From: an uncultured Candidatus Saccharibacteria bacterium
GTDB lineage: Bacteria; Patescibacteriota; Minisyncoccia; Phycocordibacterales; UBA5272
DNA: 64,000 nt
NCBI GenBank assembly: GCA_964546555.1
Contig: CAZJJX010000002.1
Coordinates: forward strand, 16,263-80,262
Direction: 5' to 3'
The position numbers and the translations under genes were made by a program. The notes under the pieces were generated by a model that saw nothing but the letters and a program-made list of their open reading frames with translations, did no database searches and was not told the DNA's origin. Shown piece by piece: positions 9,380 to 48,173 of this stretch (position 1 is its first letter; the number at the start of each line of letters is the position of its first letter).

Positions 9380-9512
9380 GAGATATTCTAGATAACTAGT
9401 AGAACCTTAATAATTAAGGGAGTCATTGCACTCTAAAGCAAGGTGGTACCACGGTTTATAAAAATCGTCCTTGAGAAAACAAGCACATTGTTTTCTTAGG
9501 GGCGATTTTTGC
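9380..9512 (+). promoter_or_regulatory. compact T-box riboswitch leader of ileS
   Basis: T-box motif 'AGCAAGGUGGUACCACGG' (9435-9454). Antiterminator: CAAGG / 7-nt bulge UGGUACC / ACGG ... UCGU-CCUUG. Mutually exclusive terminator hairpin AATCGTCCTTGAGAAAACAA...TTGTTTTCTTAGGGGCGATT + TTTTT (9462-9510). Short stem-loop with AUAA in loop (9386-9404). Confidence 0.6.
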
Positions 9513-9553
9513 TTTATATTACTACTAACGCGTTATCAATTACATTTATTACT

Positions 9554-12500
9554 ATGCCTCCAAAATCAATTTCAGAAAAAGAACAAGAAGTGCTCAAATT
9601 CTGGGAAGATAATCACATCTTTGAAAAGTCAGTCAATATGCCTGCAGGCGAACAAGCGCGGGGTAACTTTTCATTTTATGACGGACCACCGTTTGCAACG
9701 GGCCTACCACACTACGGACATATCTTAGCTGGAACTATTAAGGATGCAGTTCCACGTTATCAGACGATGAAAGGAAACTCTGTTCGTCGTGTGTGGGGGT
9801 GGGATTGTCATGGGCTTCCCATTGAAAATTTGATTGAAAAGAAACTTGGGCTTGCAAGTAAAAAGGATATAGAAGATTTTGGAATTGATAAGTTTAATAA
9901 TGATGCGTACCAAAGTGTGCTTCAGTATGAAGAAGAGTGGAAGGGTATTGTTCCGCGTCTTGGAAGATGGATCGATATGGAAAAACCGTATAAGACAATG
10001 GATGCATCATATACGGAAAGTATTTGGTGGGCATGGAAGTCACTCTATGAAAAAAAACTTGCATACGAAGGCAACAAGATGATGCACATTTGTCCTCGTT
10101 GTGAAACAACACTTGCCCAGAGTGAGGTAGGTATGGAGTATCACGATGTTACAGATATTTCCGTCACCGCAAAATTTGAGCTTAAAGATGAGCCGGAAAC
10201 ATTTGTTCTTGCGTGGACAACAACACCATGGACTCTCCCTGGCAATACCGCGCTTGCTATTAATATAGCAATTCCTTATGTAAAAGTGCGAGCTACAAAA
10301 AATGACGGAGTGATAGAATTTTATATTTTAGCAGAAGCAAAGTTTGCAGATTATAAGGTCTATGCAGAAAAAGATTTTAGTAATTTTGAAATAGTGGAGC
10401 AATTACAAGGAAGTGAGCTTGTTGGTAAAACATACAAACCGGTGTTTCCGTATTTTGAAAATGCTGATATAGAAAACAAAGAACATATTTGGAAAGTTTG
10501 GCATGCAGATTTTATTACAGCAGACACTGGAACTGGTATTGCTCACGAAGCTCCAGCATTTGGTGCTGAGGACATGGAACTTGCCAAGGCGCATAAGATT
10601 CCTATTATCAAGCATGTGAAAATGGATGGAACATTTACTTCATCTGTAACAGATTTTGCTGGGATGAAAGTAAAAGTAAAAGACGACACCCAGTCTGCAG
10701 ACATTGAGATTATTAAGTGGCTTGCTCATAATGGTAAGCTCTTTGAGAAGCATAAAATTATTCACTCGTATCCACTTTGTTGGCGATGTAAAACACCGCT
10801 TCTTAACTATGCAACATCGTCGTGGTTTGTGGATGTTCCGAAAATAAAGGAGAAGCTTCTTAGTGAGAACAAGCAGATTGGATGGACGCCATCTCATACC
10901 CGTGACGGACGTTTCGGTAAATGGCTTGAAGGTGCTCGTGAGTGGGCTGTGTCACGTTCAAGATACTGGGGTGCACCACTTCCTGTATGGAAGAATAGTG
11001 ATGGTAGTGAAGTAAAAGTAATTGGCTCACTCAAAGAGCTTGCAGAAGCTAATATGGTAAAGCCAAAGAATACATATTTTGCTATGCGTCATGGGGAATC
11101 TGTTTTTAATACACTTAATAAATTAGATTCACTAGGAAATAAAGATAATGTTCTTACCAAAAAAGGTGTTGGTCAAATAAAGGAAGCAATTAGTAAGCTT
11201 AAGGATCTTAAGGTTGATGTTATTATCTCTTCACCATTACCTCGTACAATAGAGAGTGCGGAGATTCTGTCAGAGGCACTTGGTATCAAGTATGAGGTTG
11301 ATGAAAACTTGCGAGAATTTAATTTTGGGGAGTACGAAAATGTCTCAGCATCAGAGTTTCATGAGATGAAAGATATTCACGAGAATCCATATAAGCGAGT
11401 TCCAGGTGGAGAGTCGTTTAAGGATGGTGCGTACAGATTCATGAAAGTTGTTGGTGCATGCGAAGAGAATTATACAAATAAAAAGATCCTCCTTGTTACT
11501 CATGGATCACATGTCTATATGGGTACTCGTGAAGCAGAATTAGTAACAGATGAGATGATGATACATGGAGGAAAAGACGGACATACAATCAATGTTAAAA
11601 ATGGAGACGTTGTTTCTTTTACTCCACACTGTGTTCCTCGAGATGAGACTGGTGCAGTTAATCTCCATCGTCCATACATTGACCAGATTGAGATGATTGA
11701 CAGTAAAGGAAATCCTATGAAGCGTATAGGGGATGTGTTTGACTGTTGGTTTGAGTCTGGGTCTATGCCGTTTGCGTCTATTCATTATCCATTTGAGAAT
11801 AAAGAAGTTTTTGATAAAAATTATCCAGCGCAGTTTATTGCGGAGGGGATGGATCAGACCAGAGGTTGGTTCTACTCGCTCATTAACCTTGGTGTTGGAT
11901 TATTTGATAAGGCACCCTATGAACATGTGATAGTAAATGGGTTAGTGCTTGCGTCTTCAGGAGTAAAGCTCTCTAAGAGTGAAAAGAATTACACTGACCC
12001 GATGGAGCTTGTAGAGAAGTATGGAGCTGATGCAATGCGTTATGCGCTTCTGTCTTCTCCTGTCGTAAAAGGTGAGAACTTACAATTTGATGATGAGAAT
12101 ATTTCTGATGTGTATAAGAAATGCATTAGTCGACTCGAAAACGTTGTAACACTCTATGAGATGAATAAGGAAGATGAGGTGCAAGCATCAACAAGTTCAA
12201 CAAACATACTCGATAGATGGATGGTTGCACGTATGCACGAGCTTGTAGAAAGCTCTACTCGTGGTTATGATCAATACTTACTCGATGACGCTACTCGAGG
12301 AATAGGAGATATCATAGATGATATATCAGTTTGGTATACACGTAGAAGTCGCGAGCGTCTTAAGGGTGATGAAGGAGAGGACGCAAAGCGCGAAGCATAC
12401 CAAACACTTACTTACACGTTACTTACACTTGCAAAAATCATGGCACCAGTGATGCCATTTATCGCCGAGCGAGTCTATAAAGCAGTTGGCGGAGAAAAGG

Positions 12501-13009
12501 AGTCGGTACATCTTGATAGTTGGCCTACAGAAAGTGCTATCGACACTGATCTCATTACTGATATGAAATTAGTTCGTGAGCTTGTATCACTTGGTCTTAT
12601 GAAGCGCACAGAGTCAAAGATAAACGTGAAGCAACCATTACTTTCAGTAACTTTTAATAGAGCTCTTGATGAAAAGTATTTCGGTCTGATAATCGATGAG
12701 CTCAATGTTAAAGAAGTAAAGATTGACGAAACCTCAATAGTCGACGTGATACTTAATACAACCATTACAGAAGAATTACAAAAAGAAGGAGATATGCGTA
12801 AGCTCATGCGTGCTATTCAGGATGCCCGAAAAGAAAAAGGACTATCTCCAAGTGATAGTGTTACTCTTATCGTTTCCTCTCTTACGCTTCTTTCAGACGA
12901 TACCCAACTTCGTGCAACCTGTAAAATATCTTCAATCAAAGAAGATGTGTCTATTGTGTCTAATCCAACAGATTTTTCTCAACACACTTTGTATTTTGGT
13001 ATTGAATAA
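9554..13009 (+). CDS. ileS: isoleucine--tRNA ligase, type 2 (eukaryote-like) with an inserted histidine-phosphatase domain
   Basis: 'FYDGPPFATGLPHYGHIL' (HIGH), CP1 editing region, 'RVGDVFDCWFESGSMP' and 'NLHRPYID' type-2 blocks, 'KLSKS' (KMSKS). Start taken at MPPKSI (ORF track 9509). Confidence 0.9.
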   Translation: MPPKSISEKEQEVLKFWEDNHIFEKSVNMPAGEQARGNFSFYDGPPFATGLPHYGHILAGTIKDAVPRYQTMKGNSVRRVWGWDCHGLPIENLIEKKLGLASKKDIEDFGIDKFNNDAYQSVLQYEEEWKGIVPRLGRWIDMEKPYKTMDASYTESIWWAWKSLYEKKLAYEGNKMMHICPRCETTLAQSEVGMEYHDVTDISVTAKFELKDEPETFVLAWTTTPWTLPGNTALAINIAIPYVKVRATKNDGVIEFYILAEAKFADYKVYAEKDFSNFEIVEQLQGSELVGKTYKPVFPYFENADIENKEHIWKVWHADFITADTGTGIAHEAPAFGAEDMELAKAHKIPIIKHVKMDGTFTSSVTDFAGMKVKVKDDTQSADIEIIKWLAHNGKLFEKHKIIHSYPLCWRCKTPLLNYATSSWFVDVPKIKEKLLSENKQIGWTPSHTRDGRFGKWLEGAREWAVSRSRYWGAPLPVWKNSDGSEVKVIGSLKELAEANMVKPKNTYFAMRHGESVFNTLNKLDSLGNKDNVLTKKGVGQIKEAISKLKDLKVDVIISSPLPRTIESAEILSEALGIKYEVDENLREFNFGEYENVSASEFHEMKDIHENPYKRVPGGESFKDGAYRFMKVVGACEENYTNKKILLVTHGSHVYMGTREAELVTDEMMIHGGKDGHTINVKNGDVVSFTPHCVPRDETGAVNLHRPYIDQIEMIDSKGNPMKRIGDVFDCWFESGSMPFASIHYPFENKEVFDKNYPAQFIAEGMDQTRGWFYSLINLGVGLFDKAPYEHVIVNGLVLASSGVKLSKSEKNYTDPMELVEKYGADAMRYALLSSPVVKGENLQFDDENISDVYKKCISRLENVVTLYEMNKEDEVQASTSSTNILDRWMVARMHELVESSTRGYDQYLLDDATRGIGDIIDDISVWYTRRSRERLKGDEGEDAKREAYQTLTYTLLTLAKIMAPVMPFIAERVYKAVGGEKESVHLDSWPTESAIDTDLITDMKLVRELVSLGLMKRTESKINVKQPLLSVTFNRALDEKYFGLIIDELNVKEVKIDETSIVDVILNTTITEELQKEGDMRKLMRAIQDARKEKGLSPSDSVTLIVSSLTLLSDDTQLRATCKISSIKEDVSIVSNPTDFSQHTLYFGIE
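11066..11560 (+). other. in-frame inserted histidine phosphatase (PGAM/branch-1) domain within IleRS
   Basis: 'YFAMRHGESVFN' (RHGE catalytic His motif), 'VIISSPLPRTIESAEIL', 'ILLVTHGSHV' (C-terminal HG). Lies between the 'WGAPLPVW...VIGSLKELAEA' and 'NLHRPYID' blocks that are ~40 aa apart in ordinary type-2 IleRS. Confidence 0.7.
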
Positions 13010-35708: not shown

Positions 35709-36056
35709 CTACCCTTTAACGTGTGTCACGATACGTGAAAATGTCTCAGGGTTATCTTGTGCAATTTCTGCGAGCATCTTACGGTTAATGATAATGTTAT
35801 TTTTCGTAAGTTTGTCGATGAATACTGAGTAGGTGATACCTAGAGCACGAAGTCCTGCGTTAAGACGTACAGTAAAGAGACGGCGCATGTCAGTCTTCTT
35901 GTCCTTACGGTGTGCAAATGCATGTGCACCTGCATGGCGAAGTGCAACTTTTGCTTCAACTTCTTTCTTACTGCGACCGAAGCGATAACCTTTTGCTCGT
36001 TTAAGAACATTGCGGCGGTGCTTCATTGCGATGATACTGCGTTTTACTCGTGACAT
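35709..36056 (-). CDS. rplT: 50S ribosomal protein L20
   Basis: 'MSRVKRSIIAMKHRRNVLKRAKGYRFGRSK' canonical L20 N-terminus. Confidence 0.9.
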   Translation of the reverse strand: MSRVKRSIIAMKHRRNVLKRAKGYRFGRSKKEVEAKVALRHAGAHAFAHRKDKKTDMRRLFTVRLNAGLRALGITYSVFIDKLTKNNIIINRKMLAEIAQDNPETFSRIVTHVKG

Positions 36057-36093
36057 AGTAGTTAAATTAGATAATTAAAAGACGGGTAGGTAA

Positions 36094-36282
36094 TTATAGA
36101 AGACCTGGAAGAAAACGAGACTTTTCTTTACTTGTCATCGCGAAATCCTGTCCACGCTTACCAGCAAGCTGCTTTCGGCGAGATGTTTTTGCATTGAAGT
36201 GGTTAAGACCTGGCTTACGAGCAATGATCTTACCATTTTTGGTGACCTTAAGTCGCTTAAGAAATGATTTGTTTGTTTTCAT
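36094..36282 (-). CDS. rpmI: 50S ribosomal protein L35
   Basis: 'MKTNKSFLKRLKVTKNGKIIARKPG..H' L35 pattern; ORF track extends to 36366 but the conserved start is MKTNKS. Confidence 0.75.
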   Translation of the reverse strand: MKTNKSFLKRLKVTKNGKIIARKPGLNHFNAKTSRRKQLAGKRGQDFAMTSKEKSRFLPGLL

Positions 36283-36476
36283 AAAGGTTTCCCAGTAGGG
36301 CTTATAACTATATACTGTCTTTTTGGATAGTTGGGGTATTATATCACGTTTATTCAATAATATCAAGTATTTTTTTCGGAAGACTACTTGCTGTTTTTCC
36401 CATTATTTTTGCTATTTTGAGCAAGTTTCTGCTTTTTACACAACAGAAGCATTTTACCAATTACGATATAGGTACG

Positions 36477-36752
36477 TCACTTTGTTTTTTTAAAATTTTC
36501 TTTAATTGTGCTTGCTGTGTCTATTAGCATGGATATAAACAAAATTATACAACCAACAGGAAATGCAATAGACCCAAAAACAATAGTTACAAGGACATAC
36601 TCACCACGTACATTAAACAGTAAAATACATATTCCGATTATAACTGGCGCCAACATAAGGATGGAGCCGATAATAGCTAAATAACCAGCAAGAGTTGTCT
36701 TTTTAACAGGGGCTGGATTATTTTGAAAAGTATCATTATTGTCACTATTCAT
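36477..36752 (-). CDS. hypothetical small membrane protein inserted between infC and rpmI
   Basis: Two TM helices; no homolog recognised. Confidence 0.4.
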   Translation of the reverse strand: MNSDNNDTFQNNPAPVKKTTLAGYLAIIGSILMLAPVIIGICILLFNVRGEYVLVTIVFGSIAFPVGCIILFISMLIDTASTIKENFKKTK

Positions 36753-36767
36753 ACAAGGCTTATGTTA

Positions 36768-37349
36768 TTATTTCGCCTTCTCAATAACAATCATCATAGA
36801 CTTCGGTATTTTCTTGAAAGGTTCTGCAACTTTGTAGTCAGCAGGGATGATAGCAAGAATTCTGTCCATGCGATCTTTGAGGAACTTCTCGTCCATGTAC
36901 TTTGTACGGCCTTTAAGTTGGAGTTCGATCTTGACTCGGTGACCTTCATTGATCCATTCTGCGGCCTTCTTGGCTTTGATCATGATGTCGTTTTCACTAA
37001 TTGCCACACTTATCTGAACAGTTTTTGTTTCTGTGATGTGAGCTTTTGCCTTAACTTCTTTGAGTTTCTTGGATGTTTCGTAGGTGTATTTTCCATAATC
37101 AGCGATACGGGCAACAGGTGGGTCTGCTTGAGGGGAAACTTCGATAAGGTCTAAGCCTACAGCTTTTGCTTTTTGGAGCGCTTCTTCTTTTGTGAGGACA
37201 CCTAAATTCTCTCCTGTGCTGCCGATAACGCGAAGTTTGAGTGAGCGAATATTATTATTGATGTTTACTTTTTCTGCCAAGGGATTAATTGTAAGGGTAA
37301 TAATACCATATTTTTTTCGATTGCGCCACCAAGAGGATGTGTGGCACAC
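36768..37349 (-). CDS. infC: translation initiation factor IF-3 (N-terminus uncertain; IF-3 genes often use non-ATG starts)
   Basis: 'IR..KLRVIGSTGENLGVLTKEEALQKAKAVGLDLIEVSPQADPPVARIADYGKY' N-domain and C-domain 'KGRTKYMDE'. Confidence 0.8.
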   Translation of the reverse strand: MCHTSSWWRNRKKYGIITLTINPLAEKVNINNNIRSLKLRVIGSTGENLGVLTKEEALQKAKAVGLDLIEVSPQADPPVARIADYGKYTYETSKKLKEVKAKAHITETKTVQISVAISENDIMIKAKKAAEWINEGHRVKIELQLKGRTKYMDEKFLKDRMDRILAIIPADYKVAEPFKKIPKSMMIVIEKAK

Positions 37350-37381
37350 TGAATGTGGTTCTTTACACTAAGGAGAGATTT

Positions 37382-38209
37382 ATGGGATTTAGTTGTGCGC
37401 TGGCAATTGTGCTCCCGACACCTACAACAGAGTTGAAAGATTTTCATCCTACAGAAAGTGAAGCTTCGGTATCTGATGATATTTTTTTTAGTAATCACAC
37501 TGTAAAAAATATTCCAGGTCGTGCATGGGAGGTTATGCGGTTCATTGATTTTGGACGAGTAAGGACTCTCATTAAACCAAGCAGTAGCCTCTCTGTTTCG
37601 CAAAGAGCGGGGGATGATTTCATTTCTCGTGCGGCAATTTGTGCGGCATCATTTCTTTTGGACCATCTCTATGAGCTTGAGAGGAAGGTCCAGTTGGGTT
37701 CCGTTGAGTACTCTGTTCCATTTATTGCTGACCATCTTCTTTTTTGTAGTTACTCACACAGTCATGATGATTTTTTGACTAAGAATCATTATGAGGATGT
37801 GTTTGCATATCTTGGCACATCAGATGTCGTGACAGGGTTGTGGAGTTATCAAGAGAATCTCTACTCTCGTTATCCAGATGGAGAACAACTAGCAGTTGTA
37901 AATAGTGTTTTCTGGAACTATAACCAAGCACTACTAAATACTGGATCGATGGCAGCATTTTTCCAAGAGCATTACTCGTTACTGTGGGACTCTGCTTATT
38001 CGCTAAGTGGTGTCCTTACAGAGCTGCTTGAAGATGGTGCGATTTCTGGGGAAGAACTTAGAAAGGATGCTCGATCAGTTGCAATCGTGACAACGTGGAG
38101 AGACACCTTACAGGTTCTTTCAAAAGAAGGTGCACGATGTATCTTTTTGACTGATGCGTATCATTCAGAAGCAACTACAAGCATAAGGTCAATGCGGAGA
38201 TATCTGTAA
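37382..38209 (+). CDS. hypothetical protein (275 aa)
   Basis: AGGAGAG RBS before ATG 37382. Confidence 0.4.
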   Translation: MGFSCALAIVLPTPTTELKDFHPTESEASVSDDIFFSNHTVKNIPGRAWEVMRFIDFGRVRTLIKPSSSLSVSQRAGDDFISRAAICAASFLLDHLYELERKVQLGSVEYSVPFIADHLLFCSYSHSHDDFLTKNHYEDVFAYLGTSDVVTGLWSYQENLYSRYPDGEQLAVVNSVFWNYNQALLNTGSMAAFFQEHYSLLWDSAYSLSGVLTELLEDGAISGEELRKDARSVAIVTTWRDTLQVLSKEGARCIFLTDAYHSEATTSIRSMRRYL

Positions 38210-38300
38210 GTATTGATATGTGGTCTAAAAGACGATTATCGTATATGGTGATCGTCTTTATTTTTATATACCAAGCTGTACTCGTATGTAGAGTAGTGAA

Positions 38301-39323
38301 TTAATTATTTATAAGGGGTAGAATGAATTTACTAAAGGCGCTGATCGCTAATACGATCAGGACAATGATGAGGCTGATTCCATTTTTGCTAAATATAAAC
38401 GCAAACACCTTGGCATCATCATTAAAAAAACTATACCCGTCTTTTTTAAGGAGGGTGGATACGTCACCAATATGAGCAAAACTAAATGTAGACATTTTTT
38501 GTGTAAGTGATGGAGAAAGTGCGTCGTAGATCTCAAATAGTTTCTTTGTTTCACCAACCTCATCGTACCCGCCGTATTCATTTTGTTTTCGTTCTCCGTA
38601 GATGAACATCGTCGTATTAAAAAATTCTACATCGTATGTGTTTACGGTTTTTGATAGTAGATCGACAAAGGTGCTATCAAGGATTTGGAGTGCTTCAATC
38701 TCATACTCCTTGGGCGCATAGGTGACGTGGTTCTTTTCGTAGTCGCTGTTTACGTTAAGAGCAAGGCGTTGCTCTTCAGTAAAGGGTTCGCGTATGTAGT
38801 CATTTTTTATATTATGAATATAGATATTCGGTATTTCTTTGCGTAATTCAAAAGCTGCAATAATAAAAGGGTGCCACGTGATTTTAGTTTTATTATCTCC
38901 AGTTTTGTAAGTTTCACCATATTCAAATCTAAAAAAAGAAAATGGTACAGTGTAATTTTGCGCCTCGATACAGTATGAAAATTTTCTCTTGTCTCCGTAG
39001 TGCAAAAAGTGAGCGTGACGTAGGGTGTCTCTTGGCTTTTCATAAAAAGTGAATCCGTTATCAAGAGCAAATTGTTGGTATTCTTTTTTCTTAATAGTTT
39101 CTCCAAGAAAGTGATACACAATTGCAAAAGGTAGAGAAAAAAGGAAAATCCATAAAAGGAAGTACCCAAATAGTTGATCTACAATATCAGTGGAACCGTG
39201 CGTGGTCGTAAAAAGCGCAACACTCAAAAGCACGATAGATATAACAATACTGATAATAAGACTCCGTTTCAAGATCTTGTTGGCGTTTTTGTCTATCTCC
39301 TCAAGTGCTGTAAAATTAATCAT
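38301..39323 (-). CDS. hypothetical membrane-anchored protein
   Basis: N-terminal TM pair, ~250-aa extracytoplasmic domain. Confidence 0.4.
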   Translation of the reverse strand: MINFTALEEIDKNANKILKRSLIISIVISIVLLSVALFTTTHGSTDIVDQLFGYFLLWIFLFSLPFAIVYHFLGETIKKKEYQQFALDNGFTFYEKPRDTLRHAHFLHYGDKRKFSYCIEAQNYTVPFSFFRFEYGETYKTGDNKTKITWHPFIIAAFELRKEIPNIYIHNIKNDYIREPFTEEQRLALNVNSDYEKNHVTYAPKEYEIEALQILDSTFVDLLSKTVNTYDVEFFNTTMFIYGERKQNEYGGYDEVGETKKLFEIYDALSPSLTQKMSTFSFAHIGDVSTLLKKDGYSFFNDDAKVFAFIFSKNGISLIIVLIVLAISAFSKFILPLINN

Positions 39324-39335
39324 AGATAGAACAAT

Positions 39336-40130
39336 TTACTTTTTTGGGAACCAGGGAATAAATGCACTTGTTTTTGCTTTGTAGACTTCCCATTCAGGAA
39401 TTCCTTCCCATTTTTTCTCAAGCATCGGTATGCCTGATACTTTAAGAAGAAGGAACGTGATGAGAATAGGAGATGCAAAGACTATGCTAAATGATGTTAC
39501 AGAATACGAGATACATGCTATTCCAAACCACATCATCGACTCACCAAAATAGTTTGGGTGGCGTGTATATTTCCAGAGACCTGTCTTCATGATCTGGCCT
39601 TTATGTATAGACTTACTTTTAATAAATCGATCAAGCTGTCTATCTCCAAGTACTTCAAAGAAGAATCCGAGCCCCCAAAGGCTAAGCCCAAAAAGAAGTG
39701 GCAAACTAGGGGTCGATACACGGACAAGGGAGAGTGTAAAAGGAAGAAGGACGATACTTATGACAACTCCTTGAAGTACAAAAATCTGAAGGTACGCACG
39801 TGCAAGATAGTATCGCGCTCCATGACGTAGCCACGTCTTACGCCACGAGAGGTATCTGAAATCTTCTCCCTTGCCACGGTTTTTCATATATATTCTGTAT
39901 GATAGTCGCAGTCCCCATAGTGTAATGAGTGTGAGTATAATGATACTTGCAGGGTTAAGAGCTTCTGATTGCATGGACATAAGTTCGTACGCAACAGCAA
40001 TAAATGTAAGACCATATGCGATATCAATGATGCTGTTATCTTTTTTAAACTGAGCGACAAAAAAGAGAACGCTTGTAATGCCTAATGTGATAATGAGTGA
40101 GGTGATGTAGAGCGCAATTGCTTGTTCCAT
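39336..40130 (-). CDS. DUF1295 / steroid-5alpha-reductase-like (ICMT-fold) membrane protein
   Basis: 'TGLWKYTRHPNYFGESMMWFG' hallmark motif. Confidence 0.65.
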   Translation of the reverse strand: MEQAIALYITSLIITLGITSVLFFVAQFKKDNSIIDIAYGLTFIAVAYELMSMQSEALNPASIIILTLITLWGLRLSYRIYMKNRGKGEDFRYLSWRKTWLRHGARYYLARAYLQIFVLQGVVISIVLLPFTLSLVRVSTPSLPLLFGLSLWGLGFFFEVLGDRQLDRFIKSKSIHKGQIMKTGLWKYTRHPNYFGESMMWFGIACISYSVTSFSIVFASPILITFLLLKVSGIPMLEKKWEGIPEWEVYKAKTSAFIPWFPKK

Positions 40131-40256
40131 AATGTGATTAAGTATAGCAAGTAATATTGAATAGGGTGGGGATGTTGTCAGGTGGTATATAAGGAAGAAA
40201 GAATTCAAGAAATGAAAAGGGCCACGCAAAGCGTAGCCCTTAGAAAGACAACCAGA

Positions 40257-41030
40257 TTACTTTGTAGTAATTGTTATTGTACTTGTAACAAGATTACCTC
40301 TTGAGTTCAATGTCTGAACGGTGATAACTTTTTCACCTGTAGTCCAGCCTTCTGTCAGTGCGTCAAGATGTTTTATCAGTGATTTTGCATGTTCGTCTGT
40401 CGTGGCAACTTCAGGCAAAGTTGCTTGATGAGGCGTTTCTGCTTCAACTGCATGTTGATTGTCCGCTGCAGTACTGACACTAACACTTTCGATGTTAGGG
40501 ATAAGTTCCTTAGCAAGAATGAGTGCATCATCATAAACAGGTCCGATGCCACGAGTAAGTTCATTGATGCGACTGAAGGTTGCTTTTGTGTTGTTCCTGT
40601 CCTTCCTCTTTTTGTACAATTCAAGAAGTTTAAGAAGGTACTTCCCTTGACGAATAGGGTCAGTTTCTTCTGCAAGACCTTCATTGAGTATCGCTTCTGC
40701 TTGGACATCTCTTCCGTAGGCCAGATAGACGTCGGCTTCTGCAATAGGGTCAACTTCGTGATACGTACCATGTTGCATCGTCTTGTCTGTGGTGTCAGGT
40801 GTTCCAAAGAAACTATCCGGTGACAAACGTGACTCCAGAAAAACAGATTCTGTGTTCATGTTCCGCCGGGTAGGCCGCCTGTAAATAGAGAGACCCATTA
40901 CCATCGCTGCCAGAACAAGAAATGCAACTACTATTGCTTCCACATTTGCACTACCATCCGCTTCTACTTGAGCATAGACAGGGGAACAAGCAATTAAAGT
41001 CGCTAGCAAAAAGAAGAGTGAACGAACCAT
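40257..41030 (-). CDS. membrane protein with FimV/HubP C-terminal-type motif
   Basis: SP/TM N-terminus; 'DPIAEADVYLAYGRDVQAEAILNEGL' matches the FimV C-terminal TPR-like peptide motif. Confidence 0.5.
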   Translation of the reverse strand: MVRSLFFLLATLIACSPVYAQVEADGSANVEAIVVAFLVLAAMVMGLSIYRRPTRRNMNTESVFLESRLSPDSFFGTPDTTDKTMQHGTYHEVDPIAEADVYLAYGRDVQAEAILNEGLAEETDPIRQGKYLLKLLELYKKRKDRNNTKATFSRINELTRGIGPVYDDALILAKELIPNIESVSVSTAADNQHAVEAETPHQATLPEVATTDEHAKSLIKHLDALTEGWTTGEKVITVQTLNSRGNLVTSTITITTK

Positions 41031-41205
41031 TTCGATATCCTTTCAGGATTAGGTTTCTAGGAATATCCGTAAACATCATACAATATAATTTACAAAAAGC
41101 AAGAAATCGTACCTGAATTCGCATTCTAATCGCACAAAGGTTTCAGACTAATTGCACAGGTGTTTTCGGTATATAGCTCATGTATATATCTCATACACAA
41201 ATTGG

Positions 41206-41250
41206 AAAAGAAAAAAGCCCCGAAACGATTAAACGTTTGACGGGGCTACT
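41206..41250 (-). terminator. rho-independent terminator of SPFH operon (minus strand)
   Basis: GCCCCG-tcaaacgtttaatcgttt-CGGGGC then TTTTTTCTTTTCC on minus strand. Confidence 0.65.
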
Positions 41251-41271
41251 TCATCGGCATTGCGCCGATGG

Positions 41272-42480
41272 TTACTTCTTGGTGCCTTGCATGCTCATGT
41301 CGAGCGAAAGGTCCTTTGCCGTCCTCACGGAGAGCATGTCGAGGAGGCCTTGCACACTACTGTGCTGACCGGTGCCCGACTGGCCCATGACGACGCCCGG
41401 AACGAGCGGCTGCTTGGAGTTGGCGAGTGCGTCGGCGTAGAACTTCTGCGCTGCCGTCCATGCTTCCAGCTTCTTTTCGAGCGCGCCGTCGGCTTGCATG
41501 ACCAGACGCTTGCGTTCGGCTTCGCCTTCACCTAGGAGCACTTGCTCGCGCTTGCGCTGCTCGGCGGTCTTGGCTGCCAGCGAAGCGACTTCGAACTCTT
41601 GTTGAGCCTTGGTCACTTCCTTGGCCTTGACCGTCTCTTGCTCCCACTTCGCTTTCGCTGCGGTCGCTTGACCTTCCTTCTCGGCGGTGATCGCCGCTTG
41701 GATGGCCTTCTGAGCATTGGCTTGCGAAACCTGGACTTGCGTCATGGCTGCTTGCCGTTGCTTGATCTGCTCTTGCACGATCGTCGAGTAGTCGAGCTTC
41801 TCGATCGACATGGGTTGCAGCGTGATGCCGAACTGGTCGAGGATCGACCCGTGTTGACGTGAGGCCTTGCCGGTCTTCGGGTCGCGCACGATCTCGGCGG
41901 CCAACACCTTCTCGGGTTGGTTCGTGATCGGGTTCGTGCGTTCGACCTGGTGTGTCACCATCTGGAAGGCGCCATTCTGCGCTTGGTCGTTGATGATGTC
42001 GATCAGCTCGGCCTTGCGTTCGGCAAACGATTCGATTGACGTCATGGTGTTGCCCGACAACTGAATGGCGGTGTTCACCATGCGTGCGACGCCTCGTTCT
42101 TCGATTCCGGACGGCGAACCGAACTGCTTGTGGATCATGACGATCTGCTTGCAGTCGGTTGGCATTTGCCAGTTGACGCTGCCGTACAGCCTTGCTGTGC
42201 CGCCATCGTTGAACTGGAGCGCCTTGCCGGTGTCCATCTTCTCGGTGTGCACGTCGAACAGGTACGAGCCTTGCCGCGGGTACGTCGTCACGGTACCGAG
42301 CCATTGCATCTTGGGGCCAGGTTCGGTGTAGCAGTCGAGGGTGCCGTCGAGCTTCTGGATCACCATCAACTGCTTGGCATCCAGGTTTTCGACAAGCTGT
42401 GGCGTGAGGATCAGGGTGACGAGTGCTGTGATGGCAGCGCAAGCCATCATGACGAGGTTGCGCATCGTGAGTTTTTCCAT
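41272..42480 (-). CDS. SPFH/band-7 (flotillin/YqiK-like) protein, encoded in a GC-rich island
   Basis: N-terminal TM, SPFH core, long Ala/Gln/Glu-rich coiled coil 'QAAMTQVQVSQANAQKAIQAAITAEKEGQ'; local GC ~60-65% vs ~40% background. Confidence 0.75.
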   Translation of the reverse strand: MEKLTMRNLVMMACAAITALVTLILTPQLVENLDAKQLMVIQKLDGTLDCYTEPGPKMQWLGTVTTYPRQGSYLFDVHTEKMDTGKALQFNDGGTARLYGSVNWQMPTDCKQIVMIHKQFGSPSGIEERGVARMVNTAIQLSGNTMTSIESFAERKAELIDIINDQAQNGAFQMVTHQVERTNPITNQPEKVLAAEIVRDPKTGKASRQHGSILDQFGITLQPMSIEKLDYSTIVQEQIKQRQAAMTQVQVSQANAQKAIQAAITAEKEGQATAAKAKWEQETVKAKEVTKAQQEFEVASLAAKTAEQRKREQVLLGEGEAERKRLVMQADGALEKKLEAWTAAQKFYADALANSKQPLVPGVVMGQSGTGQHSSVQGLLDMLSVRTAKDLSLDMSMQGTKK

Positions 42481-42492
42481 TGCGGGATCTCC

Positions 42493-42720
42493 TTAGTTGT
42501 TGCCGTCGTTGCGGCGAGGTTGGTGCTTCTTCACTTGCTTTTCCAGGCCGGCTTCAAGGCTGGCTTGGTTGGCATCGGCGAGTTCCTTCTCCAGCTTCCG
42601 TTGTTTGCGGAAGAAGGGGAAAGTGGGACGCCCCTTGTAGAGCGGCCAGGCGACCTGGGTGATGAACACCAGCAGGACGATGGCCACAAACAGGTACTCC
42701 ATGAGACGATAGAACAGCAT
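42493..42720 (-). CDS. small membrane protein upstream of SPFH gene (NfeD/YqiJ-like position)
   Basis: Single TM 'LFVAIVLLVFITQVAWPLY' + charged tail; same GC-rich island. Confidence 0.45.
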   Translation of the reverse strand: MLFYRLMEYLFVAIVLLVFITQVAWPLYKGRPTFPFFRKQRKLEKELADANQASLEAGLEKQVKKHQPRRNDGNN

Positions 42721-43015
42721 GTCTGGCTCCTCTTAAAAAGGTTGAGTTTGGAAAGGGCTTCTGCTCTTATTGGTTACCCAATTTTGAGACAATTATTATT
42801 ATATAATATAATATATTTGTTTGTCAATAGTGACAAAATAGAAATTTATTGCCTAAAATTAGTAACATTCTTATAAACAACAAGATGTAGTTCTAAAGGA
42901 TTTCTCTAAAATATTATTTGTAAGTCTTTAGCTAGTAACATGGTTTTTGACTTATCAATTTATAAACGATAGGATGATTTTAGGTAGTTTTTTAAAATCG
43001 TAAGGAAAGGTAATT

Positions 43016-43705
43016 ATGAACACAAAAAGGTTTTTTCCAGTAATTCACTGTATTGACCCATTTGAAGAGCAGGGTATTGGTCATGCAATTCATAATACTA
43101 AGATTGCAATGACACATGGTGCTGACGGAGTGTTCCTTATTGGTCATGCGATGAAGTATGGGCCACTATGTGAAATCTATGAACATGTAAGAAAACAGTT
43201 TCCTGAAATATGGATTGGTATCAACTTTCTCGATATTACAGGTTATGATACATGGCACCTGCTAGGCAGTGTTGTTAGACATCAGCGAGGGATCAACGGT
43301 CTCTGGGTAGACATGTTGCCTGATGAGCGAATTGATGTCCCGTCATCAGTTGAGGTGTTTGGCGGTGTTGCCTTCAAATACATAGATCCAAATATTCGAG
43401 GACAAGAACTCAAGGAAGCATGCAACAAGGCTCTAAAGGTGGTTGATGTCGTTACAACAAGTGGAATAAAAACTGGCTCAGCTCCTGATACAGAGAAACT
43501 AGAAGAGATACGAAGAAACATTGGTAACGAAACACAGCTAGCACTTGCAAGTGGGGTTACCGAAGAAAATGTCTCCTTGTTCTTGCCGACTGTGGATACA
43601 TTTTTGGTTGCTTCAAGTATCATTGAACGAAAAAAGAGCCTAGGTAATCATGAGTATCTTATTCCAGAAAAAGTAGCATCACTCGCGCAAAAAATTCATG
43701 CATGA
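43016..43705 (+). CDS. TIM-barrel protein, BtpA/SgcQ-like (tentative)
   Basis: Alternating beta/alpha pattern, 'PVIHCIDP' N-terminal strand; weak. Confidence 0.35.
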   Translation: MNTKRFFPVIHCIDPFEEQGIGHAIHNTKIAMTHGADGVFLIGHAMKYGPLCEIYEHVRKQFPEIWIGINFLDITGYDTWHLLGSVVRHQRGINGLWVDMLPDERIDVPSSVEVFGGVAFKYIDPNIRGQELKEACNKALKVVDVVTTSGIKTGSAPDTEKLEEIRRNIGNETQLALASGVTEENVSLFLPTVDTFLVASSIIERKKSLGNHEYLIPEKVASLAQKIHA

Positions 43706-43716
43706 GTAAGACTTAA

Positions 43717-43760
43717 CTTCACGTAACTATAGAGCATATGGTTACGTGATTTTATTTTTG
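43717..43760 (+). terminator. rho-independent terminator
   Basis: TCACGTAAC-13nt-GTTACGTGA + TTTTATTTTT. Confidence 0.65.
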
Positions 43761-43868
43761 TGACGCCACGGGGTACCGCGGCATCCTACAAAAACATAGT
43801 CGTGAGTACACTTTTTTTATGTAAGGAGTGATACGTCACAAAATGATTACATTTAGAGTATTTTTACT

Positions 43869-44105
43869 TCATAGTAAGTGTTTATATGAAAAAGGATATC
43901 CAGAACTTGACTTAAGATATTTTTCAAATTCGTATGCACGATCTTTGTTAGTAAAAGAGCAGTACCAGACTATTTTATAAACACCATTATTTCTTGTTGT
44001 TTTTGTTTCGCCGTTATTATGTTCTTGTAATCTCTTTTTAAGATCAAATGTGCACCCTATATACTTTTCTTGCCTTTCATTTTTTAAAATGTAGACATAG
44101 TGCAT
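43869..44105 (-). CDS. GIY-YIG nuclease-family small protein (YhbQ/UPF0213-like)
   Basis: 'YVYILKNERQEKYIGCTFDLKKRLQEHNNG' GIY-(x10)-YIG + R...E..N. Confidence 0.65.
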   Translation of the reverse strand: MHYVYILKNERQEKYIGCTFDLKKRLQEHNNGETKTTRNNGVYKIVWYCSFTNKDRAYEFEKYLKSSSGYPFSYKHLL

Positions 44106-44267
44106 ATGATTTAAGTATATTCCACGACGCAAGATTACTTGCTATGAGGGGCACGACCCCACTTCGCGATTACGTTACACGGGGTCCTACCACTTCTTTT
44201 CAATTTTTTATTCATATCTTAAGATATCTAATGAGATTTTCTATACTATGGTGCGCGCACCGCGAAG

Positions 44268-44308
44268 CTCCAAAAAACCACCAAGCATTTCTTGGTGGTT
44301 TTTTTGGA
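44268..44308. terminator. bidirectional terminator downstream of ssrA
   Basis: CCAAAAAA-CCACCAAG-cattt-CTTGGTGG-TTTTTTGG. Confidence 0.6.
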
Positions 44309-44314
44309 GCGAAG

Positions 44315-44711
44315 TGGTGGAGATGGCGAGAATCGAACTCGCGTGTACTAAGGTATGAGGTATGGGTCTACTGTACGTAGTTTGCTTCATGTGTTCGCAT
44401 TCATTATTAAAAGCAAACTAAAGCAATGAATGTATAGCATGAATTATTTCAAGTATAGTGTTATGCAACACTGTGCTCTACATCTACTGTTATATTGCCA
44501 GCAGTCATCCCGTAGATGCGAACGAAAGTGACACCAGATCGGCCAGTAATTTAGGCGAATGCTGGAACTAGTCCGTTTGCCATGTATGGTGAACGGATAG
44601 CCTTACCAGTTGAGTTTGCAACATGGTCTCTCCGGTCTTTTACGAGTTGCGGAGAATTCTCGGTACAGCACATACAACATATTCTTAGTATCGATGCCAA
44701 AGATCATCCCC
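44315..44711 (-). ncRNA. ssrA: tmRNA (SsrA), ~397 nt; predicted tag (A)ANGLVPAFA
   Basis: 3' tRNA-like end 'GCGAG-TTCGATT-CTCGC-CATCTCC-A-CCA' (44315-44343); 5' 'GGGGGATGATCTTTGGCATCGATAC' pairs to give a G3:U70 acceptor stem; internal 'GCA AAC GGA CTA GTT CCA GCA TTC GCC TAA' (44551-44580); smpB 400 bp away. Confidence 0.75.
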
Positions 44712-44842
44712 CTAAAACATCGGTAAACTGATGTTTGGGCGTCCGTTTGCCATGGGCCCTGCAAACGGATTAGCCATAAAACACCAGTAACCAAATGTTC
44801 GGGCGAATTAACCGCCCAAATAATTTTTCAATTTATAAAAAA

Positions 44843-45109
44843 TTATTTGGATTGTTTATTCTTTAGATATTCTTTTTTAATTTTATTTTTGAAATTAGCA
44901 GACCAAAGAGTTTTTAGAAATCTTTCCCTATTAAACACATCTTCTTTTGAAGTAAATTCCTCAGTGTGTATACAAACAAGCGGCTGTCTATTTTTTGTTG
45001 CTGGAACGTGTCCAGAGTTATGCCTCCTTAATCGCTCTACTACATTAGATGTGCATCCTACATATAGCTTTGTATCTTTTTCACTATATAAAATATAAAT
45101 GAAATACAT
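44843..45109 (-). CDS. GIY-YIG nuclease-family small protein (second copy)
   Basis: 'MYFIYILYSEKDTKLYVGCTSNVVERLRRHNSG'. Confidence 0.65.
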   Translation of the reverse strand: MYFIYILYSEKDTKLYVGCTSNVVERLRRHNSGHVPATKNRQPLVCIHTEEFTSKEDVFNRERFLKTLWSANFKNKIKKEYLKNKQSK

Positions 45110-45113
45110 ACCT

Positions 45114-45548
45114 TTAATTACTTTCTCGCAGTTCTCTGCGAGTGATATTTTTTTTGATATCTTCTCGCTTGTCGCGTGCATCTTTCTTTTTACACACCGC
45201 GACCTCAACTTTAATGAGGTTATTTTTACTATACAACGAGTTAGGATGAAGTGTCAATACTTTTGTTTGTTCGAGTCCGTAGAGCTCAGCAATCTCTTTT
45301 TTTTGTAACAATAGTTTGCGGGTGCGGTAGGGGTCATAGTCTTTTGGGGTATTTGCAGCTTGATATGGTGCAATATAGACACCAACAAGAAACGCTTCAC
45401 CTCCACGGATGAGAATTTTCCCACCTTCAAGGTTTGCAAGCTTAGCTCGCACAGCTTTTACTTCAAAACCAAAAAGCTCGATTCCTGCATCATAGGTGTC
45501 GTTTATCACGTAGGTGAGATGGAGTTTTTTGTGTTCAGCTTGTCTCAT
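45114..45548 (-). CDS. smpB: SsrA-binding protein SmpB
   Basis: 'NDTYDAGIELFGFEVKAVRA', 'DPYRTRKLLLQKKEI', C-terminal basic tail. Confidence 0.85.
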   Translation of the reverse strand: MRQAEHKKLHLTYVINDTYDAGIELFGFEVKAVRAKLANLEGGKILIRGGEAFLVGVYIAPYQAANTPKDYDPYRTRKLLLQKKEIAELYGLEQTKVLTLHPNSLYSKNNLIKVEVAVCKKKDARDKREDIKKNITRRELRESN

Positions 45549-45662
45549 AGATATCTAGATGGTTATAGATAAACGTATTCTATCTATTCTAACATACCCA
45601 TTTCCTATGGTCGGTCATTTTTGGTATACTACATATCTTGCGGTTCTTTATGGAGGTTTACC

Positions 45663-45902
45663 ATGTCTTCTGATAATGCTTCCCCAAAAAACAGGGAACA
45701 TGTCGTTCCTTTGACTTCAGAAGAAAAATTGTGGTATTCAGCTTTGTTTGTTGGGAAGTACACGTGTCCAACATGTCGTGTGCTTATTCCGGTTATGAAT
45801 AATCATGGGATAGAAGGTGACACAAAAAGTGATTATTTTACTCGCCACAAAAAGATAGGTACATCACTTCTGTGTGATTACTCCTTACAGCCTATTGCGT
45901 AA
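45663..45902 (+). CDS. hypothetical small protein with CPTC motif
   Basis: GGAGG RBS before ATG 45663. Confidence 0.35.
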   Translation: MSSDNASPKNREHVVPLTSEEKLWYSALFVGKYTCPTCRVLIPVMNNHGIEGDTKSDYFTRHKKIGTSLLCDYSLQPIA

Positions 45903-46027
45903 CCTCATCTGTGCTAGGAGACTCCACCAAAAAGGTTTTTGTGTACGGACCAATCACGCTTATCTGTGATTGGTTTTTTTTTATGCTTTGCTGTAATCTG
46001 CTATAATGTCTTCACTATAATCTAATT

Positions 46028-47923
46028 ATGCAAAAGATGAAATTCCCAAAACTTACTAAGCAGTCCAAACAACAAAAGGAAGATCAGTCTTCCCAGGCAA
46101 AACCAACAAGCTTTGCTCAACAACTTTTTGGAGTTTTTATTATCTTCATGTTTTTGTCATGGGGGTACTCAATTATTAGCGAAAAGAAGGCGACACCAGT
46201 TGTGCCTATTTCAGAGTTCGCACAAAAGGTTGCAACACGAGAAATCGTGGCTATTGATGTAGAAGGGAGCTCTCTTACTGGGAAAAAAGCAGACGATACA
46301 AAAATAGTGACTAAGAAAGAAGATGGAGCGTCTGTATTTTCAACACTCTCTGCATATGGGGTTAGTACAAGCACCCTTGCAACAACGACAATAACTATTT
46401 CTTCTGATAGGGGTGCATCTTTTTGGGTTTCACTTATTCCAATTATCCTCCCGATCCTTTTCCTTGCGTTTATGATTTGGTGGTTAGCTCGTGGCATCAA
46501 AGGTGCGAATGTACAAGCGCTTTCATTTGGTCAGTCTCGTGCAAAAGTTATTTATCCAGATGACACAAAAGAAAAAATTCTTTTCAAGGACGTGGCTGGT
46601 GCAAAAGAAGCAAAAGAAGAACTGGAAGAAATCGTAGAGTTTTTGCGTGCGCCAAAGAAGTTTACTGATATTGGTGCAGAGATTCCAAAAGGTGTCCTTC
46701 TTATGGGTGCACCAGGAACAGGTAAGACTATGCTTGCTCGTGCTGTGGCTGGGGAGGCAGGAGTGCCGTTCTTCCATTTATCTGGATCGGAGTTCGAAGA
46801 GATGTTTGTTGGTGTCGGGGCATCACGCGTGCGTGATCTTTTCGATATGGCAAAGAAAGCCGCACCTGCAATCATCTTCATTGATGAAATAGATGCGGTT
46901 GGACGAAGTAGATCTACAACAATAGGTGGGCAAGGAGAAGCTCGCGAACAGACACTCAATCAGATACTTGTAGAGATGGATGGATTCGAGCCAACAATGA
47001 ATCTCATTGTTATGGCGGCAACGAACCGTCCTGACGTGCTCGATAAAGCACTACTTCGTCCTGGACGTTTTGATCGTCGAGTGACACTTGATCTTCCTGA
47101 TCGTAATGATCGTGAAGAGATTCTTTCTGTTCATATAAAGTCTAAGCCACTTGCAGAAGACGTGAATCTTAAGGTAATCGCAGAAAGAACACCAGGGTTT
47201 TCTGGTGCAGATCTGTATTCTCTTATGAACGAAAGTGCGATCTTAGCTGCGCGAGAAGGTCGCAAGTCTGTTGCGCAGTATGATCTTATTCGCTCTATCG
47301 AAAAGGTGATGCTTGGTCCAGAGCGAAAGAGTCATGTTCTTTCTGATAAAGAAAAGAAGTTAACGGCATATCACGAAGCAGGACATGCTCTTGTCGCATC
47401 AGTATTGCCTGATGCTGATCCTGTGCATAAGATATCTATTATTGCTCGCGGTAATGCCGGAGGATACACACTTAAGCTCCCACTTGATGACAGGCGACTC
47501 ATGAGTCGTGCGACGTTTTTGGATGATATTGCAATGTCACTTGGTGGATATGTAGCAGAAAAAGAAATCTTTGGAGACATTACTACGGGACCATCAAATG
47601 ATCTAGAGGTTGCGTCCAAGATGGCTCGTCAGATGGTGATGCGATACGGTATGAGTACACTTGGGCCGATTGCTTTTGATGCGCGCAATGAGACACTTTT
47701 AGGAACTAAGGAATACAGCGAAGAATATGCACAGAAGATTGACGATGAAGTAAAGCGCATCATGGATGAGGCGTGGAATAGAGCACGGCTTATCATTACC
47801 GACAAACGGCATGTGCTCACAGCGATAGCAGAGGAGCTTATGCGTGTTGAGAATATCGAGCGTGAAGAGTTTGAGAAGCTTCTTGTTTTACACGGTATCG
47901 CACCAAAGAAGAAAGAGATGTAA
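46028..47923 (+). CDS. ftsH: ATP-dependent zinc metalloprotease FtsH
   Basis: Walker A 'GAPGTGKT', SRH region, 'HEAGHAL' zinc-binding motif, two N-terminal TMs. Confidence 0.9.
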
Positions 47924-48055: not shown

Positions 48056-48128
48056 GCATCCATAGCTCAGTTGGTAGAGCCGTCGTCTTATACACGACTG
48101 GTCCCTGGTTCGAGTCCAGGTGGATGCA
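48056..48128 (+). tRNA. tRNA-Ile, anticodon UAU (reads AUA); CCA not encoded
   Basis: Cloverleaf by hand: acceptor GCATCCA/TGGATGC, D GCTC/GAGC, anticodon stem GTCGT/ACGAC with loop CTTATAC (U33, anticodon TAT, A37), T arm CCTGG-TTCGAGT-CCAGG, discriminator A. Confidence 0.75.
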
Positions 48129-48173
48129 CTTTGGGGATAAGGTGCGAATGAAATCAAAATACGATGTAGTATA
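48117..48173 (+). repeat. 57-bp direct repeat, copy 1 (includes tRNA 3' end)
   Basis: 'CAGGTGGATGCACTTTGGGGATAAGGTGCGAATGAAATCAAAATACGATGTAGTATA'. Confidence 0.8.

Follow-up and report, generated by a model that had tools for sequence, protein, structure and literature searches.

A GC-rich SPFH operon of phage type 3' of ssrA in a low-GC Patescibacteria chromosome, probably a recent horizontal acquisition

A 64-kb stretch of contig CAZJJX010000002.1 (assembly GCA_964546555.1), hereafter the window, contains a short block rich in guanine plus cytosine (GC) that encodes a two-gene operon for an SPFH (Band 7) protein and a small membrane protein. All coordinates are positions in the window; WIN denotes the window's own copy or genome, L-numbers denote loci of the SPFH family, and P-numbers denote homologues. 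Both genes lie on the minus strand. The first, an open reading frame (ORF) for a protein of 75 amino acids (aa), is assigned to a single-pass membrane protein by helix prediction and by its conservation as a partner (42493..42720); the second encodes a 402-aa SPFH protein, recognized by matches to Pfam Band_7 and phrog_11908, by AlphaFold and by Foldseek (41272..42480). Their coordinates and the Band_7 match bear out the first-pass annotation, which had named an SPFH/band-7 gene and an upstream 75-aa membrane-protein gene on the same strand as the real genes of the block. A scan of the AT-rich spacer upstream of the operon located a promoter-like site, TTGACA-18-TATAAT, that agrees with the consensus at 12 of 12 positions (42798..42827, minus strand), and in L005, a related genome, TTGACA-17-TATAAT can be read at the equivalent position. 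The Shine-Dalgarno sequence AAGAGGAG (42727..42734, minus strand) is read 6 nt ahead of the ATG of the small gene. Only 12 nt separate the two genes, and the ribosome-binding site of the second, AAGGAG, overlaps the stop codon of the first; translation of the 402-aa SPFH gene would be coupled to that of the 75-aa gene.

Directly 3' of the SPFH stop codon lies a small hairpin (41252..41271, minus strand) with a conserved GCAAT loop and a stem that covaries in L005 and in a second related genome, L241. It is followed, at the 3' edge of the GC-rich block, by an intrinsic terminator (41206..41247, minus strand), comprising the G+C-rich hairpin AGCCCCG...CGGGGCT (41217-41247) and then a T-run, as the first-pass annotation had noted. 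The terminator hairpin is identical between WIN and L005 at 36 of 37 nt, and near-identical in L241, whereas the coding sequences of WIN and L005 are only 68% identical. It occurs as a single copy in the window and no copies were found in IMG/VR, the two places searched for a mobile or repeated element. From the positions of these elements, the GC-rich block begins at a start codon, ends at a terminator and coincides exactly with a single operon, whose promoter is AT-rich.

The GC content is 59% over 41217-42770, compared with 39.7% for the entire window. In 200-nt windows it ranges from 0.555 to 0.63 across 41200-42699, falls to 0.35-0.42 below 41200, and reaches 0.22-0.30 at 42700-43099. The sharp rise between about 41255 and 42725 and the abrupt edges described at first pass were thus reproduced by sliding-window GC (59.0%) and by GC at third codon positions (GC3), as was the 65% GC of 41521-41580; the claim of more than 80% AT from 42760 was too high, with 76% measured over 42760-43000 and 78% in the richest 200 nt. 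A 1-kb profile of the whole window revealed no second block of such GC in the 64 kb, and in 300-nt windows the sequence outside the island has a mean of 0.392 (standard deviation 0.042, maximum 0.507) against an island peak of 0.63. The three codon positions of the SPFH gene have GC1/GC2/GC3 of 0.60/0.39/0.79, and GC3 of the 75-aa gene is 0.78, while the immediate neighbour genes have GC3 of 0.32-0.37 and all other plausible genes among window ORFs of at least 120 aa have 0.24-0.45. The GC excess of the island is located at synonymous sites. Amino-acid composition is not its cause: GC2, at 0.39, is unremarkable, and in homologues the same protein is encoded with 38-40% GC. The long overlapping ORFs that had been remarked upon earlier were confirmed on either strand, with one of 304 aa in a different minus frame and one of 248 aa on the plus strand, and are by-products of the high GC. 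Translational selection or high expression was also considered as a source of the high GC3 and was rejected: GC3 is 0.33 for L11, 0.34 for NusG and 0.32 for SSB, and 0.32-0.42 for L11, NusG, SSB and IF-3 together, and GC3 is thus not driven up by strong expression in this genome.

An independently assembled Logan contig (run SRR12487045) is 100% identical to window positions 39547-45483 (5,937 nt), and both island junctions are therefore crossed by an independent assembly. Moreover, L005 and L241, the two relatives, were obtained in other studies and have the operon at the same locus. The gene order in L005 is tmRNA, small gene, SPFH, 257-aa gene, DUF1295, 340-aa gene, 290-aa gene and IF-3, with flanking proteins 69-85% identical to those of the window; in L241 it is small gene, SPFH and DUF1295. 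The window encodes NusG, L11, ArgRS, IleRS, MetRS, SSB, IF-3, SmpB, FtsH, RecG, SecD and tmRNA, and its DNA is cellular. The relatives of its FtsH (78-83% identity) are labelled Parcubacteria or Gracilibacteria, the syntenic metagenome-assembled genome L005 is labelled Saccharibacteria; these labels differ in class, and by sequence comparison the window genome is placed in the Patescibacteria (candidate phyla radiation, CPR).

The 402-aa protein matches Pfam Band_7 (PF01145) over residues 68-258 with 31.8 bits (cutoff 23.6; 1.8e-7); its match to the phage profile phrog_11908 is full-length (E 1.7e-41) and aligns residues 28-395 with positions 24-427 of the 430 in the profile. Sequence similarity to solved prohibitins and HflC is weak. 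An AlphaFold monomer model (predicted local distance difference test score, pLDDT, 78.8) comprises a transmembrane (TM) helix at residues 6-29, an alpha/beta SPFH domain at 30-231, an 85-residue helix at 233-317, and C-terminal helices. Foldseek matched this model to HflK/C, prohibitin, erlin, stomatin, flotillin, QmcA and vault protein, all with probability 1.00, and the best 45 fold matches in the PDB are without exception SPFH-type cage proteins or major vault protein. The flotillin/YqiK label given at first pass did not hold, as Pfam detected Band_7 alone and no flotillin-specific C-terminal region, and flotillin ranks 23rd or lower among the fold matches, after HflK/C, prohibitin, erlin and stomatin. 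NCBIfam yielded no HflK/HflC equivalog match, and a single SPFH gene is present with no K/C pair; PADLOC defence models matched neither the SPFH protein nor the partner nor the neighbours. The 402-aa protein is best described, from profile and predicted fold, as a genuine but distant SPFH protein, no closer to flotillin or YqiK than to other members.

The 75-aa protein carries the motif TQ..xP...G..xFPxFR, and a single-sequence model predicts two helices, one spanning the membrane (residues 2-29) and one charged or amphipathic (36-65). Neither Pfam nor NCBIfam gave a match to the NfeD domain (PF01957) even at E<=10, and because of this and of the all-helical prediction, which is not an OB fold, an NfeD-like assignment fails; together with the missing flotillin-specific region, this argues against the classic YqiJ/NfeD-YqiK arrangement that the first-pass annotation had seen here. 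The partner was then searched for across the family with a hidden Markov model built from eleven 75-aa-type proteins and applied to the ORF directly upstream of each SPFH gene. It was present in all 28 loci whose SPFH protein is 45% or more identical to that of the window, in 64 of 84 loci at 38-45% identity, in 12 of 25 at 32-38%, and in none of the 76 below 32%. We regard the 75-aa protein as a real, conserved partner of the SPFH family. Its gene was recorded from Logan gene calls only, not from NCBI, and standard annotation appears to miss it. Lysine and arginine residues precede the TM helix of the SPFH protein and acidic residues follow it, and a strongly basic stretch follows the TM helix of the partner; this suggests that the SPFH protein is N-in, like HflK/C, and the partner N-out and C-in.

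Phages with a homologue of the SPFH protein include crAss001-like phages of Bacteroides, T5-like Vibrio phages and an uncultured phage of 462 kb, the identity being 28-40% over no less than 93% of the length. Homologues also lie on 70 IMG/VR contigs, many of them 100-424 kb long; structure matches among the phage proteins of BFVD range from 1e-20 down to 1.8e-26. In GTDB genomes the family is patchy, with many Patescibacteria, Methylococcales and other Gammaproteobacteria, and some Bacteroidota. It can be regarded, from these matches, as phage-typical. The closest homologues (P0002, P0004, P0005, P0011 and P0013; 59-69% identity) all lie on contigs of 59-66% GC that carry genes for primase, RecT, NinB, tail-fibre assembly, endolysin, DNA polymerase, helicase, ligase and endonuclease V (endoV). 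On these five contigs the GC of the gene equals that of its flanks, and the small partner gene lies upstream.

The relative synonymous codon usage of the two-gene module correlates negatively with that of host genes (r=-0.45) and positively with that of the genes of phage contig L085 (r=+0.87). When gene GC was compared with flank GC over 178 non-redundant family loci, the two were found to follow each other (slope 0.78, residual standard deviation 0.037), and the window gave the largest residual of all 178 (z 4.3; z 4.6 for GC3, level with L204). The next outliers were L204, L002, L018, L008 and L005, with flank GC of 0.36-0.50; those carrying a taxon label are Patescibacteria. The first-pass annotation had offered horizontal acquisition from a high-GC donor as one explanation, and this is upheld by the nearest homologues (59-71% identity) on 59-66% GC phage-gene contigs, with gene GC equal to the flanks, by the donor-like codon usage, and by the first place among the 178 loci.

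A neighbour-joining tree with 200 bootstraps grouped WIN, L005, L002, L241, L239, L240 and P0018 in a clade at 94%, nested together with the phage alleles P0002, P0003, P0004 and P0005 at 99%. The DUF1295 proteins of WIN, L005 and L241 are 75-79% identical to one another, making the three genomes equidistant in this gene, whereas the SPFH proteins of L005 and L241 share 79% identity and that of WIN only 61-62% with either. L005 and L002 have an 11-aa insertion in common that is lacking in WIN and in the phage alleles. The WIN allele is too divergent for equidistant genomes, and we infer that an incoming homologue has displaced the allele here at least once (xenologous replacement), which we consider likelier than insertion for the first time. 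The rate of synonymous substitution (dS) in flanking genes between WIN and L005 is 1.2-2.3 and is saturated, and a gene resident since the two genomes split should therefore have lost its foreign GC3; the positional counterparts in L005 and L241 have an SPFH GC3 of 0.56-0.57, as against 0.79 in WIN. The one close allele, L243 (run SRR14039885, 1386 nt), encodes a 92%-identical SPFH protein with GC3 0.81 at a dS of 0.72, and because the differences between strong (G or C) and weak (A or T) bases are balanced (44:35), WIN is without detectable amelioration. The L005 type recurs with 77-83% identity in contexts that are unrelated to one another and in hosts whose GC ranges over 40-56%; both allele types are thus mobile. 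Atypical composition and codon usage, phylogenetic discordance and patchy distribution, the operational criteria for horizontal gene transfer, were all found, and horizontal transfer of the operon is supported.

The account that we consider probable is the following. A self-contained two-gene SPFH operon of phage type would sit in a Patescibacteria chromosome of 40% GC, in a variable stretch 3' of ssrA, and would keep the codon usage of a gene pool of about 60-65% GC because the present allele arrived horizontally and recently. As related genomes hold an operon at the same locus as a different allele type with intermediate GC3, xenologous replacement would be the simplest history. From its fold and family, the SPFH protein may oligomerise into a membrane-attached ring or cage like those of HflK/C, prohibitin or QmcA, with the 75-aa protein as its putative membrane partner, in the operon position that NfeD holds in classical SPFH operons. 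Candidate roles are quality control of the FtsH type, or protection of the membrane during conflict between phage and host. An HflK/C-like link to FtsH is compatible with the ftsH-smpB-ssrA neighbourhood and with the order in L006, where a family SPFH gene sits between smpB and ftsH.

A number of observations weigh against this account. Placement of the SPFH gene in an FtsH neighbourhood was seen only in the window and in L006, which weakens the FtsH link; the function of the operon is wholly inferred, and the literature yielded nothing specific on the function of phage SPFH proteins. No donor above 71% identity was found, and for this reason the word recent draws on composition only. The contig of L243, the sole close allele, is 1.4 kb long and ends just after the stop codon, leaving that allele without genomic context. 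A mosaic test, in which WIN was scored against resident-type and phage-type consensus sequences, gave no significant recombination breakpoint within the SPFH gene (one breakpoint, p=0.18; two breakpoints, p=0.24). A search of 36000-46000 gave no att-type direct repeat, either of the 3' end of ssrA or near the island, and no integrase occurs among the neighbouring genes. Furthermore, GC-rich alleles of the family recur in the low-GC, Patescibacteria-like contexts L002, L204, L018 and L008, and this recurrence could reflect a force that maintains GC in the SPFH gene. Finally, L239 is cellular (ATP synthase, MscL) with 56% GC, and the GC3 of its SPFH gene, 0.81, matches its neighbours.

The last of these points bears on the source of the allele. 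The donor may have been a Patescibacteria relative of higher GC and not a phage, with the operon circulating among CPR and a copy arriving from a relative of about 55-60% GC by recombination at the homologous locus. This history is possible, although we lean away from it. Besides L239, it draws on the 94% bootstrap with which WIN groups with Patescibacteria-type alleles, on the two-hairpin 3' end that is common to the clade and not found on phage contigs, and on the spread of L005-type alleles over unrelated contexts and host GC. Yet WIN is only 61-62% identical to L239 and L240, no closer than to the phage alleles (59-69%), it matches the phage consensus at 34 informative sites as against 20 for the L005/L002 type, and no allele of the WIN type was found in a high-GC cellular context.

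That no recent transfer took place, and that selection or a GC-biased process, such as very strong expression, mRNA structure or recurring gene conversion, has preserved the GC-rich codons of an old resident operon, is improbable in our view. WIN, L005 and L241 do share the locus and a near-identical terminator, WIN and L243 both remain at a GC3 of about 0.8 over a dS of 0.72 with balanced changes, the GC excess recurs in several low-GC loci, and the operon has a consensus promoter and a strong ribosome-binding site. Against this stand the modest GC3 of L11, NusG, SSB and IF-3 in the same window, the intermediate GC3 of L005 and L241, and other Patescibacteria copies that do not exceed their hosts, L046 (GC3 0.31, flank GC 0.40) and L006 (GC3 0.26, flank GC 0.45); in addition, the WIN allele is discordantly divergent for equidistant genomes, and its codon usage fits a generic high-GC pattern across all amino acids.

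We give very little credence to an ordinary housekeeping NfeD-SPFH operon of the YqiJ-YqiK or YbbJ-QmcA type, its GC raised only by the Ala/Gln/Glu-rich coiled coil: a small membrane-protein gene does lie upstream of the SPFH gene, and QmcA-YbbJ (8z5g) is among the fold matches, but no NfeD domain was matched in the all-helical partner, it is GC3 and not GC2 that is raised, homologues at 38-40% GC encode the same protein, and the family is phage-typical. A chimera, with a fragment of a high-GC organism joined into a low-GC contig as the first-pass annotation had allowed, can be practically discarded: although composition changes abruptly at the edges, these coincide with promoter and terminator and not with arbitrary points, the independent Logan contig spans both junctions without a difference, and L005 and L241 show the same gene order.

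The operon is located in a variable region 3' of ssrA whose gene content differs between related genomes. The tmRNA gene (ssrA; 44315..44711, minus strand) was identified with Rfam RF00023 at 86.5 bits and was missed by ARAGORN; it is accompanied by smpB (45114..45548, minus strand; Pfam SmpB, 1.6e-37) and by ftsH (46028..47923, plus strand) as a context gene. The ftsH-smpB-ssrA cluster of the window recurs in L006. In the window, the operon and ssrA are 1.6 kb apart with two other genes between them, whereas the L005 tmRNA is separated from the small gene by 316 nt. A BtpA-like gene (43016-43705, plus strand; Pfam, 6.4e-9) lies between ssrA and the operon and has no counterpart at the equivalent L005 position, and is hence another variable gene of the region. 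Small GIY-YIG genes, recognized with Pfam, flank ssrA (43869-44132 and 44843-45208, minus strand), and may be selfish insertions around it; the 316 nt that separate the L005 tmRNA from the operon contain neither of them, and beyond the opposite end of that tmRNA only about 116 nt of sequence is available, including a tandem (GTGTAGC)n repeat at the contig end (L005 1-56), just upstream of the tmRNA gene.

Across 221 loci, proximity of tRNA or tmRNA genes to the SPFH gene was not enriched (21 observed against 19.3±3.1 under random placement). In 7 loci ARAGORN placed a tmRNA at most 10 kb from the SPFH gene, and WIN and L005 are to be added to these; on IMG/VR viral contigs, a tmRNA lies 182 nt downstream of the SPFH gene in L143 (11409-11795) and 1.4 kb upstream in L097 (8152-8496). 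The only tRNA in the window is a tRNA-Ile with anticodon TAT (48056-48129, plus strand), and the IleRS gene (9509-13009, plus strand) has a histidine-phosphatase domain (His_Phos_1) inserted at residues 525-671.

GC-rich single-gene islets were observed near the SPFH operon in other low-GC, Patescibacteria-like loci: L002 (8298-8924, minus strand), L018 (11544-12272) and L230 (7293-8366). The first encodes a 208-aa protein without a Pfam match (GC3 0.79), the second a membrane protein of 242 aa and the third a vWA protein, and Patescibacteria-like genomes may often carry islets of this kind. L002 also carries a diversity-generating retroelement (RVT_1 and bAvd, 6445-7832) about 2 kb from its GC-rich operon.

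The gene next to the island (40257..41030, minus strand) encodes a 257-aa FimV/HubP-like protein, so called from the names of its homologues, with a signal or TM segment and a TPR-like motif. Its GC content is 43.7%, with GC3 0.345, and not about 47% as stated at first pass. The FimV/HubP motif that had been reported there finds agreement in 26 homologues (E 1e-16 to 4e-7), which include, beside the L005 ortholog, proteins, for example from Rhodoferax, that JGI or NCBI name FimV or FimV/HubP, and the resemblance is probably real on the strength of those source names. No curated FimV model matched in NCBIfam or Pfam at E<=10, where a weak TPR_19 hit (E 0.053, residues 99-125) was the only match; neither the LysM domain, which gave no hit, nor the long acidic linker of full-length FimV/HubP was seen in the protein, and a sequence search of the PDB with it returned no match. 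The 257-aa gene is present in L005 and absent in L241. It is a separate, older variable gene of host-like composition, outside the island.

A broader reading, which we hold only tentatively and consider unlikely, is that the ssrA-smpB-ftsH region of these CPR acts as a landing pad, at which phage-derived SPFH alleles would be repeatedly swapped from a high-GC phage pool, with a role in phage-host conflict or in HflK/C-like regulation of FtsH, through an undescribed non-NfeD partner. If so, DNA would travel regularly from phages of high-GC bacteria to low-GC episymbionts. Horizontally acquired islets and mobile SPFH operons are already known, and the present case is in that respect fairly ordinary but instructive. 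It provides a well-bounded example of a phage-type cassette in a streamlined CPR genome across a gap of some 20 GC points, at a fixed locus that has apparently seen an exchange of alleles, beyond a single insertion; what makes it worth recording is its phage source, the width of the GC gap, the apparent replacement and the uncharacterised conserved partner. It further draws attention to a large and uncharacterised family in which an SPFH protein is paired with a single-pass, non-NfeD partner of about 75 aa, and which is common in huge phages, crAss-like phages, CPR and some Gammaproteobacteria. Should the product form an HflK/C-like cage, this family would be a tractable entry to the role of SPFH cages in phage infection. 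For annotation, the lesson is that a 75-aa partner gene escapes standard gene callers.

Among known systems, the HflK/HflC-FtsH complex of E. coli (PDB 7vhq, 7wi3, 9cz2) resembles the window protein in having an N-terminal TM helix, an SPFH domain and a long coiled-coil helix, as predicted here; HflC is its best PDB match (E 4.5e-9), the N-in topology suggested by the charge distribution would be shared, and ftsH is found at a distance of 3.5 kb and, in L006, immediately after the SPFH gene. In contrast to HflK/HflC, a single SPFH gene is present in place of a K/C pair, identity is 12-15% with no NCBIfam HflK/HflC match, and FtsH adjacency was seen in only one other family locus. The SPFH-NfeD operons (QmcA-YbbJ 8z5g, YqiK-YqiJ, FloA-NfeD) have in common with the present operon an upstream small membrane-protein gene that is apparently translationally coupled and is co-conserved, and SPFH-type operons are patchy and horizontally transferred in Pseudomonas (PMC13086221). 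They differ in that the partner here lacks an NfeD domain, being predicted to consist of a TM helix and an amphipathic helix and not an OB fold, and in that no flotillin-type C-terminal domain was detected in the SPFH protein.

With the phage SPFH proteins (phrog_11908, the crAss001 'SPFH-domain/band7-family protein', the Vibrio phage pVp-1 group and those of huge phages) the window protein shares a full-length profile match, whereas its gene is chromosomal with its own promoter and terminator and the phage genes lie inside long operons without that terminator. Compared with genomic islands at ssrA or tRNA genes, this island is only 1.5 kb long, has neither integrase nor att repeat, and stands apart from ssrA by 1.6 kb and two other genes; nevertheless, it has in common with such islands a position in the region 3' of ssrA, a foreign composition and codon usage, and a surrounding of variable gene content.

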